Source: Myxococcales bacterium
Lineage (GTDB): Bacteria > Myxococcota_A > Polyangia > Haliangiales > Haliangiaceae
NCBI GenBank assembly: GCA_016794525.1
Contig: JAEUJY010000077.1
Coordinates: 173,091-237,090, forward strand
Reading direction: 5' to 3'
DNA: 64,000 nt
Position numbers and translations under genes: made by a program. The notes below the pieces were generated by a model, which ran no database searches, was not told where the DNA came from, and was given only the letters and a program-made list of their open reading frames with translations. This document shows positions 34,398 to 36,533 of the stretch, piece after piece (position 1 is the first letter of the stretch; every line of letters begins with the position of its first letter).

Positions 34398-36533
34398 TCA
34401 GTACTCGAAGCCGCTGGCGCCGATGAACTCGCGGACGATCGAGGTCGGCGGCACGTGGTCGGGGTAGATCGGGACGAACCGCTCGAGCAGCTGCTGCAGG
34501 CGGTACGCCATCGTGTAGCTCGGGTGCGTGGTCGGCACCTCGAGCAGGTAACGCTGCGCGTAGACCTTGAGCACCGACAGCTCGTAGATCAGCGAGGTGT
34601 CGAAGACCGCGTCGGCGCGGTGCTGGTACGGGAAGATGTGGCGGCGCTCGCCGGCGCGCACGCTCGGCCAGCGCGCGATGCTGGCCGCGGCGTCGTGGCC
34701 GCGGCTGTGGCGATCGCGGACGATCCGGCGCAGCAGCCGCACGTCGGAGGTGTGCACGCGCGACAGCCGATCGAAGGGCAGCTGGGTCAACGGACAGACG
34801 AACACCGCGAACACCGCGCCCGGCGGCACCAGCTCGGCCAGCCGCGGGTTGAGGCCGTGGATGCCCTCGGCGAGGAGCACGTCGTGGGCGCCCAGCCGCA
34901 CCGTGCGGCCGGTCTTGCGCACGCTGGCGCCGCGGCGGAAGTCGTAGCGCGGCAGCTCGACCTCCTCGCCGCCGCACAGCCGCCCCAGGTGGTCGGTCAA
35001 CAGCTCGACCTCGAGCGCGTCGAACGCCTCGAAGTCGTACTCGCCCGACGCGTCGCGCGGCGTGCGCTCGCGATCGACGTAGTAGTCGTCGAGCGACAGC
35101 TCGTACGGCGTCGCGCCCAGCACCTGCAGCTGGGTGCGCAGCCGCTTGATGAACGTGGTCTTGCCCGACGACGACGGGCCGGCGATCGCGACCAGGCGCG
35201 CGCCGCTGTGGCGGATCTGATCGGCGATCTCCGACACCCGGCGCTCGTGGTAGCCCTCGGCGACGCGGATCAGGTCCGAGACCTTGCCGCCGACGCACAG
35301 CCGGTTGAACGCGCCGACGCTGTCGACGCCCAGCGCCTCGAGCCAGCGCTCCTGGACGCTGGTCATGCGCTGCAGGATCGCCCGGGTCTGGCGCAGCTCG
35401 GCGTCGTCGACCGGCCGCGCCGCGCTGGCCGGCGGGTACACCAGCAAGAGCTCGCCGTCCTCGGGCAGCACCCGCGCGCCGCCCAGCGCGCCGGCCGACG
35501 GGCCGACCGGATCGAGCGCCAGCGCGTGGACCTGGCCGAACGTCGAGACCGGCACCAGCGGCCCCAGCCACGACTCGAGCAGCGCGCCGACCTCGGGCCA
35601 GCCGGCGTCGGTGAAGTACTCGCGGGCCTCGTCGACGTACCACAGCTCCTCGCGCACCGGCAGGTCGGCCGCCACCAGCGCCGCCAGCTCGGCCTCGAGC
35701 CGCGCCGCCAGCGCCGGCAGCTCGTCCTTGATCCGCCCGCGCACCCGGACCCGCTGGCCGAAGCCGAGCGAGTGGCCGAACGCCAGCTCGACGGTCGGGT
35801 CGACCCGGCGCGCCGCCTCGAGCAGCAGCAGCGCCAGGCCGCGGCGGTGGATGCGCTCGCCGTCGGCGGTGGCCGGCGTGATCGCGGCGATCGTGCACGG
35901 CGACGTGACGCGCTCGCCGAGCGACACCGGCCGGCGATCGATCAGCGCCGCCACCACCGGCAGGTCGCCGACGGTCGCCGGCAGCAGCGAGCCCACCGCG
36001 ACGCCGGTCGGCACGTCCTTGCGGTGGCCGAGCACGGTGACCTGCAGCCGCGCCCGCCGCGGCAGCGAGCGCTCGCGCAGGAGCGCGCCCAGCGTGTCGG
36101 ACACGTCGGTCAGCCGCGTGCGCAGGCCGGCGACGAAGCGCTCGGTCAGGCGCAGCGCCACCGCCGGGTGGGCCGCGGCCAGCGCGCGGTAGGCGTCGAG
36201 CGCCAGCGTCGCCACCAGCAGCGGCGCGGTCGCCGTCACCGTCGCCGCGCGCGGCGCCTCGACCAGCAGGCCGAGCTCGCCGAAGTACTCGCCGGGCAGC
36301 ATCCGCGCCACCACCACGCCGCCGCGGCTGGCCTCGGCCTCGCCCTCGAGCACCAGGTACAGCGTGCGGTCGCGGGCGCCCTCCTGCACCACCACCGCGT
36401 CCTCGGCGAACGCCTCGCAGGTCAGCCGCTCGGTGAGCGCGTCGACCTGATCGGCGGTGAGCCCTTCGGTCAGCTCACCACCGGCGCGGCGCAGCTCGTC
36501 GCGTGAGATCGGCACCCACGGCGATCCTCGCAC
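34398..36533 (-). CDS. Fusion protein: cyclic-nucleotide-binding domain plus a uridine-kinase/phosphoribulokinase-family P-loop kinase.
   Basis: The N-terminus has a cNMP-binding signature (…GEYFGELGLL…ATVTA…). The C-terminus has Walker A AIAGPSSSGKTT and a uridine-kinase-like region (…LSLDDYYVDRERTP…FDALE…). Confidence 0.75.
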   Translation of the reverse strand: MRGSPWVPISRDELRRAGGELTEGLTADQVDALTERLTCEAFAEDAVVVQEGARDRTLYLVLEGEAEASRGGVVVARMLPGEYFGELGLLVEAPRAATVTATAPLLVATLALDAYRALAAAHPAVALRLTERFVAGLRTRLTDVSDTLGALLRERSLPRRARLQVTVLGHRKDVPTGVAVGSLLPATVGDLPVVAALIDRRPVSLGERVTSPCTIAAITPATADGERIHRRGLALLLLEAARRVDPTVELAFGHSLGFGQRVRVRGRIKDELPALAARLEAELAALVAADLPVREELWYVDEAREYFTDAGWPEVGALLESWLGPLVPVSTFGQVHALALDPVGPSAGALGGARVLPEDGELLLVYPPASAARPVDDAELRQTRAILQRMTSVQERWLEALGVDSVGAFNRLCVGGKVSDLIRVAEGYHERRVSEIADQIRHSGARLVAIAGPSSSGKTTFIKRLRTQLQVLGATPYELSLDDYYVDRERTPRDASGEYDFEAFDALEVELLTDHLGRLCGGEEVELPRYDFRRGASVRKTGRTVRLGAHDVLLAEGIHGLNPRLAELVPPGAVFAVFVCPLTQLPFDRLSRVHTSDVRLLRRIVRDRHSRGHDAAASIARWPSVRAGERRHIFPYQHRADAVFDTSLIYELSVLKVYAQRYLLEVPTTHPSYTMAYRLQQLLERFVPIYPDHVPPTSIVREFIGASGFEY

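Follow-up and report, generated by a model that had tools for sequence, protein, structure and literature searches.

A cyclic-nucleotide-binding domain joined to a threonyl-tRNA-synthetase-like and uridine-kinase-like core in Myxococcota: a candidate second-messenger effector

What kind of enzyme is encoded by a myxobacterial gene that joins an apparent cyclic-nucleotide sensor to a kinase-like domain, and does the major vault protein (MVP) homolog nearby have any part in its function? These questions are raised by a 64,000-nt stretch of DNA (hereafter the window; GC content about 75%) from contig JAEUJY010000077.1 of a Myxococcales bacterium (GCA_016794525.1). For one of its open reading frames (ORFs), an earlier note made from the DNA letters had proposed a cyclic-nucleotide-binding (CNB) domain fused to a P-loop kinase of the uridine kinase/PRK family, with nucleotide salvage or phosphotransfer gated by cyclic AMP (cAMP) or cyclic GMP (cGMP). 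The ORF and the two motifs quoted for it are real (GEYFGELGLL at residues 81-90, AGPSSSGKTT at residues 451-460), and the occurrence of both domains in one protein is borne out by Pfam matches above cutoff, well outside chance expectation, and by more than 120 full-length homologs with identical architecture, which public databases annotate generically as 'cyclic nucleotide-binding domain-containing protein'. The proposed inventory was nevertheless incomplete, as about 290 residues of domains resembling threonyl-tRNA synthetase (ThrRS) lie between the two named ones. We consider it probable that the gene product is a stand-alone signalling enzyme of five parts: a CNB domain, a linker, a module resembling the ThrRS N-terminus, a helical connector and a UCK-like kinase domain with a C-terminal tail.

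The AlphaFold2 model, built with 29 homologs (mean predicted local distance difference test score, pLDDT, 85.9; predicted TM-score, pTM, 0.72), consists of discrete domains with the boundaries given in Table 1, and residues 141-159 form a low-confidence linker (pLDDT < 50). A Foldseek search against PDB returned three separate match regions, namely CNB domains at the N-terminus, the ThrRS N-terminus in the middle and a kinase at the C-terminus. The helical connector between the last two regions ends in a conserved block (SVGAFN...RV.EG..E....IAD) immediately before the P-loop, and its residues G407, F409, N410, E426, G427, E430 and D438 are invariant.

At the N-terminus, the hit of the Pfam model PF00027 (cNMP_binding) covers residues 41-121 (E 4.1e-13; 49.6 bits against a cutoff of 27.5), and the model also finds 29 of 29 family members, while the matches of the domain to PKA-R and PKG reach E 5e-16. 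In the model, the strands (residues 38-111) are followed by a long helix (residues 123-151), and the fold resembles CRP- and PKA-R-type CNB domains (3gyd, 2pqq; TM 0.72-0.79). The phosphate-binding cassette is under purifying selection in the 121 fused sequences compared (G85 99%, E86 93%, R95 97%, A97 91%), and the pocket Glu and Arg, the loss of which would have spoken against the earlier proposal, are both kept. The residue after the cassette Arg is Ala in 75% of the sequences, which gives PRAA[ST], a string identical to the one found in the aligned PKA regulatory-subunit sites, and the PRAATV of the protein studied here also corresponds to those sites. Because Ala at this position is PKA-like, whereas PKG-type cGMP sites have Thr, cAMP would be the more likely, if unproven, ligand.

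The same domain could in principle belong to a Pycsar-like anti-phage effector that senses cyclic CMP or cyclic UMP, since residues 30-143 are matched by the PADLOC models for PycTIR and TIR effectors (E 1e-14) and an output resembling a pyrimidine kinase would suit a signal made of pyrimidine cyclic nucleotides. This match is, however, confined to the CNB domain, where it scores 52.6 bits against 49.6 for the generic Pfam model, and the protein has no TIR or transmembrane effector domain. In addition, no cyclase or other gene is conserved alongside in 80 related loci, and the gene occurs in many families of one phylum in varied, non-island contexts, all of which makes an anti-phage role very improbable.

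The C-terminal half has a UCK-type kinase fold and is not the unrelated non-catalytic AAA/ATPase that the earlier note had considered as a possible objection. PF00485 (PRK) matches residues 448-645 (E 4.8e-18, 66.1 bits, cutoff 22), the structural matches include UCK2 (TM 0.70) and Thermus thermophilus Udk (TM about 0.7), and the family profile finds Udk/UCK proteins at E 1e-19 to 1e-22. For the comparison we take UCK2 D62 to be catalytic, R166/R169/R174 to be the lid arginines, Asp84 a ribose contact and His117 the base-selecting residue (all in UCK2 numbering), with T. thermophilus Udk Tyr93 as the counterpart of His117. In the alignment, UCK2 K33, D62, Y65, Y112, F114 and E135 correspond to K458, D482, Y485, Y530, F532 and E556, respectively, and the three lid arginines to R603, R606 and R611. 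As the Walker A Lys, the catalytic Asp and the lid arginines, together with the fold, are thus shared with Udk/UCK2 (PF00485; TIGR00235), the phosphotransfer machinery is predicted to be intact.

Is the enzyme then a genuine uridine/cytidine kinase (EC 2.7.1.48) of pyrimidine salvage, gated by cAMP or cGMP? The udk equivalogs are its best-scoring named models (E ~1e-21), Udk and UCK2 are the closest solved kinase structures, and the P-loop is retained, as are Asp482, Tyr485, Phe532 and the arginines of the lid. These equivalogs (TIGR00235 and NF004018) score only 77.2 and 77.6 bits, though, far under their cutoffs of 220.3 and 180, and two positions that contact the nucleoside in true uridine kinases are changed. 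The DHP motif is lost, UCK2 Asp84 being replaced by Glu502 in an 'EAF' context (Glu in 94% of the long-form family), and the loop with the base-selecting His117/Tyr93 has 2-3 additional residues, the aligned residue being Gly535 or Ser537, depending on the template. Both changes are family-wide. Unlike Udk/UCK2, the protein also has an insertion of ~13 residues (PLTQLPFDRLSRVH) before the lid, a 66-residue C-terminal extension and three extra domains, and it is 3.4x longer.

This long form is itself common. Residues 150-711 (562 residues) are an orthodox member of a widespread family of three-domain nucleoside kinases of ~550 amino acids (aa). A search with this core against 1.84 billion representative proteins returned 1148 representative clusters at E<1e-30, and the non-fused matches are proteins of 545-566 aa, named 'nucleoside kinase' at NCBI and 'uridine kinase' at JGI, that align over nearly their full length (query residues ~13-562) with 33-43% identity and E 1e-85 to 1e-115. 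The signature common to the fusion protein and 97 unfused members includes GPSxSGKTT (K458 99%, T459 98%), D482 (100%), E502 (94%), G535 (87%), H559 (97%), N562 (95%), R599/R602/R603/R606/D607/R611 (97%), W622 (94%) and E629 (94%). The motifs EGIHxxN and RRxxRD are shared as well, as is the C-terminal REFIGG tail, in which P695, S698, R701, E702, F703 and G705 are 87-97% conserved among the unfused long-form proteins. Like the rest of the three-domain family, the fusion protein thus has the ThrRS-like N-terminal module, the helical connector and the kinase signature; unlike them, it carries the N-terminal CNB domain and the RSLPRR linker, which are absent in 97 of 97 unfused members.

A three-domain uridine kinase of this kind is reported to have been first noted, as an interkingdom fusion, in Thermotoga maritima and Treponema pallidum (Wolf, Kondrashov & Koonin 2000). 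The T. maritima protein (TmUK) was later purified by Winkler et al., who obtained no uridine monophosphate (UMP) from the full-length enzyme or from three truncated kinase-domain constructs, and observed only ATP hydrolysis, with uridine present (PMC10248530). We infer that TmUK belongs to the family of the core studied here from its described architecture, its 'nucleoside kinase' name and its truncation points (delta-226 to delta-290; the PRK part of the long-form family begins at about residue 288-294), and not from a match of sequences. The need for uridine in the TmUK ATPase reaction would leave room for uridine binding in the family, but the lack of UMP formation adds to the case against salvage. 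Given the acceptor-site changes, the TmUK result and the sub-cutoff equivalog scores, the precise function cannot be taken to be that of a uridine kinase, a name that is probably wrong, and we regard nucleotide salvage, as the earlier note had it, as an unlikely role. 'UCK-like ATP-dependent phosphotransferase or ATPase' is a safe description, and the acceptor is probably a ribonucleoside-like compound with a 5'-OH, plain uridine or cytidine salvage being improbable.

The middle module was compared with ThrRS using a profile of 80 family sequences. This profile matches residues 1-200 of ThrRS at E 1.8e-33 (1nyq_A) to 9.3e-27 (1qf6), the editing-domain fragment 1tje at E 7.4e-28, the human ThrRS TGS domain 1wwt at E 4e-4 and the mitoribosomal protein mL39 at ~1e-11. 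The fold agrees (TM 0.62-0.68), with the ThrRS N-terminus (1qf6_A), 1tje (TM 0.68) and mL39 among the Foldseek matches of this region. The TGS domain that the earlier note had suggested looking for is therefore present by family profile and by fold, but single-sequence Pfam searches gave no TGS or tRNA_SAD match in 29 members, even at E<=1. From the profile evidence, we regard the ~200 residues of the module as a true homolog of ThrRS domains N1 and N2, related in the same way to mL39. Unlike in an active ThrRS editing domain, the residues that we take to form the editing site (His73, His77, Cys182 and His186, E. coli numbering) are replaced in the family consensus by Arg, Phe, Phe and Leu, respectively, and the family alignment has no invariant His or Cys within residues 160-445. 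Because of these replacements and the missing His/Cys, the module is predicted to be a non-catalytic derivative of the ThrRS editing module, as in mL39.

Such a homology raises the possibility that tRNA or another RNA is what the core acts on or senses, with the ThrRS-like domains binding a tRNA acceptor end, the kinase phosphorylating RNA or hydrolysing ATP, and the CNB domain coupling this translation-linked regulator to a second messenger. Besides the sequence homology to ThrRS N1+N2 and mL39, the acceptor site has been remodelled in comparison with UCKs, and fusions of the core with the tRNA m1A22 methyltransferase TrmK recur (5 clusters, a weak hint). The TmUK authors also saw their result as consistent with an older proposal of translation autoregulation (PMC10248530, citing Wolf et al. 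2000). Against this, the editing residues are lost and the middle module conserves only hydrophobic or structural residues, the TrmK fusions are rare and suggest a fusion of operon neighbours, TrmK being also attached to a sigma factor, and no RNA-related gene was found as a conserved neighbour. We therefore hold an RNA-directed function to be rather doubtful, somewhat more so than pyrimidine salvage.

Several other arrangements of the long-form kinase were observed. The unfused proteins occur also as tandem paralog pairs (e.g., 551 aa and 547 aa at L088:6001-9334, the second with a weak PRK match) and as tandem fusions of ~1,100 aa (P0149, 1105 aa; P0238, 1121 aa), which points to a hetero-oligomer in which one subunit is active and the other degenerate. 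In a small Lachnospiraceae-type clade (P0270, P0286-P0289; ~800-820 aa), TrmK stands at the N-terminus of the kinase; since P0335 has TrmK fused to a sigma-70 factor instead, this recurrent but rare combination was set aside as a clue to tRNA and probably reflects operon adjacency. The best PDB match to the kinase-domain profile of the family is a 210-aa chain called 'Uridine kinase P10' (E 2.4e-22; chain K of 9y3v, 9y4b and 9y4w), seemingly from a large multi-chain complex, for which a literature search found no describing paper.

A pattern scan of GTDB species genomes yielded at least 558 relatives; counts of loci given here refer to the best 80 at species level. These 80 loci come from Polyangiaceae, Kofleriaceae, Haliangium, Sandaracinaceae, Nannocystaceae, Archangiaceae, Myxococcaceae and Anaeromyxobacteraceae, together with two metagenome-assembled genomes (MAGs) of Cyanobacteriota/Sericytochromatia, and 79 of them encode the CNB domain. 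In a rough neighbour-joining tree of the shared core (101 tips, without bootstrap support), all CNB-bearing proteins fall into a single clade of 35 tips, the remainder of which are fragments or CNB-less derivatives. This placement indicates a single fusion event, in which the CNB domain would have been added once, followed by lateral spread of the clade across Myxococcota. The proteins without a CNB domain (L073 at 8001-9713, P0121 and P0140) start at or inside the C-helix/ERSLPRR remnant and are apparently secondary sensor losses or truncated gene calls; at the first of these loci, another gene ends just upstream of the CNB-less kinase. The two cyanobacterial MAG proteins (L060:239-2305 and L080:417-2483; 41-42% identity) have both domains above the Pfam cutoffs. 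Their place in the tree is within the myxobacterial sequences, which suggests a transfer between phyla, or possibly contamination of the MAGs.

The fused proteins are further set apart by the linker motif LLRERSLPRR, which is 85-98% conserved among them and occurs in 99 of 120 fused but in 0 of 97 unfused proteins, with RSLPR retained in the cyanobacterial members. Its position and distribution make it a candidate signal-transducing element, and we predict, with moderate confidence, a ThrRS-like/UCK-like ATP-dependent phosphotransferase or ATPase that is switched by cAMP. In the mechanism that we propose, a 3',5'-cyclic nucleotide, most likely cAMP, would bind to the intact cassette (Glu86, Arg95) and shift the long C-helix together with the linker, which leads into the beta-grasp domain. 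The packing of the ThrRS-like module against the kinase domain, or the oligomerisation of the protein, might change as a consequence, and the kinase domain (Lys458, Asp482, Arg603/606/611) would thereby be switched in its ATP turnover or phosphotransfer, be it on or off.

Four points weigh against this prediction. Sequence cannot fix the ligand specificity, and the CNB model of the Pycsar TIR effectors in PADLOC fits about as well as the generic one. TmUK, the only long-form enzyme that has been assayed, made no UMP (PMC10248530), so that even the term 'kinase' is unproven for the family. The allosteric path from the CNB domain to the kinase domain is conjecture, and the activity of the fused members is a prediction.

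Single polypeptides in which an N-terminal CNB domain with an intact cassette is likewise joined to an enzymatic output are known from other bacteria, as in the mycobacterial cAMP-dependent acetyltransferase Pat (4ava), which is among the PDB and NCBIfam matches of the fusion protein, and in the cAMP-sensing EAL phosphodiesterase Bd1971 of Bdellovibrio (PMC6717892). Unlike in Pat and Bd1971, the output here is a UCK-like kinase that is reached through a ThrRS-like module. Our literature search found no published fusion of a CNB domain to a uridine kinase, nor any combination of CNB, ThrRS-like and UCK-like domains; both components are of known kinds, and it is their combination that is unreported in the literature searched.

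Myxobacteria are generally considered to encode many nucleotide cyclases, with few of the effectors identified, and the fusion protein is a conserved, phylum-wide candidate for a cyclic-nucleotide effector with an enzymatic output. It bears also on its very large core family (>1,100 clusters at 50% identity), which is labelled 'uridine kinase' or 'nucleoside kinase' even though the sole biochemical test found no such activity. Natural gating by a ligand suggests an activity that cells must switch, rather than constitutive salvage, and a comparison with and without cAMP offers an experimental handle on the true substrate. More tentatively, and with considerable doubt on our part, the three-domain family could consist of nucleoside- or tRNA-sensing ATPases or kinases that regulate translation or nucleotide pools, one branch of which would have been put under direct cAMP control in Myxococcota through the CNB domain and the RSLPRR transducer. 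If true, this would be a previously unrecognised class of bacterial second-messenger effectors, and would provide a ligand-switchable handle on the function of a family that is found in Treponema pallidum and Thermotoga, too. The case calls for caution with the propagation of the 'uridine kinase' label and equally with functions inferred from the neighbouring MVP gene.

The MVP neighbour had been pointed out in the earlier note, and the kinase gene does indeed lie two genes downstream of it on the same strand, an arrangement that could suggest a vault-associated kinase working with the MVP homolog. The arrangement is, however, specific to this genome, as a tblastn search with the window neighbours placed MVP within 8 kb of the kinase gene in 0 of 80 related loci, the 96%-identical locus included. 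In relatives of 94-96% identity, the kinase gene has the same 232-aa gene upstream and the same FadB/thiolase genes downstream, but the DNA comparison shows that synteny breaks at ~37,365, i.e., at the 3' end of MVP, and upstream of the break these relatives carry a WGR/DUF4132-MoxR-DUF5682-VWA cluster in place of MVP. Because the MVP region has a lower GC content (0.688 against ~0.75) and is missing from the syntenic position in close relatives, MVP seems to belong to a region that is variable or acquired. Its linkage to the kinase is ruled out by the 80 loci and by the synteny break; the gene is stand-alone, the adjacency incidental, and a vault-associated function hardly credible.

The remaining neighbours do not form a conserved unit with the kinase gene either. 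The 232-aa gene directly upstream, which has no Pfam, NCBIfam or PADLOC match, is a neighbour of the kinase gene in none but the closest relatives (L001-L003, L007). All-vs-all clustering of the flanking ORFs within 6 kb in the 80 loci revealed no conserved operon partner, the largest cluster (14 of 80 loci) consisting of Ser/Thr kinase paralogs that lie on either side of the gene and on either strand. The contexts of four fused and two unfused members have nothing in common, and the distant fused members stand in unrelated surroundings. A nucleoside hydrolase, a DUF1688 protein and a GAF-domain protein encoded farther away in the window (Table 1) were rejected as partners, since the 80 related loci show no linkage between them and the kinase.

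Table 1. Features of the fusion gene and of its surroundings (coordinates in the window; residues of the 711-codon ORF).
Feature	Coordinates	Strand	Residues	Description
Whole ORF, stop included	34398..36533	minus		711 codons counted from the first GTG
GAGGA Shine-Dalgarno-like box	36525..36529	minus		9 nt 5' of GTG 36515; direct sequence reading
Cyclic-nucleotide-binding domain	36084..36476	minus	~20-150	beta-roll and long C-helix (123-151)
Phosphate-binding cassette FGELGLLVEAPRAATV	36237..36284	minus	84-99	contains Glu86 and Arg95
Conserved linker motif LLRERSLPRR	36054..36083	minus	151-160	directly after the C-helix, within the low-confidence model segment
TGS-like beta-grasp domain	35874..36053	minus	~161-220	homologous to ThrRS domain N1
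ThrRS editing-domain (N2/SAD-like) homolog	35430..35873	minus	~221-368	alpha/beta part of the model; editing-site residues replaced
Variable loop and helical connector	35202..35429	minus	~369-444	model helices 377-401, 406-414, 418-443
UCK/PRK-family P-loop kinase domain	34599..35201	minus	~445-645	
Walker A AGPSSSGKTT	35154..35183	minus	451-460	Lys458
Family-specific C-terminal extension	34401..34598	minus	646-711	ends in VPPTSIVREFIGASGFEY; beyond the Pfam PRK match
232-aa gene directly upstream of the kinase	36583-37281	minus		gap 50-68 bp; lipoprotein-like signal (…AAGGLFVAAC…) at start
MVP-like gene	37334..40018	minus		MVP_shoulder E 1.1e-25, Vault_3
Inosine-uridine-preferring nucleoside hydrolase	42793-43716	+		6-17 kb range from the kinase
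GAF-domain protein	46015-47478	minus		6-17 kb range from the kinase
DUF1688 protein	52309-53829	+		6-17 kb range from the kinase

A scan for promoters and terminators returned nothing, the GC content of 75% making such a scan uninformative. As regards the start of the gene, the GTG at codon 7 (36515) is favoured by the GAGGA box that precedes it by 9 nt and by the length of 705 aa in most homologs, so that the protein probably comprises 705 aa.

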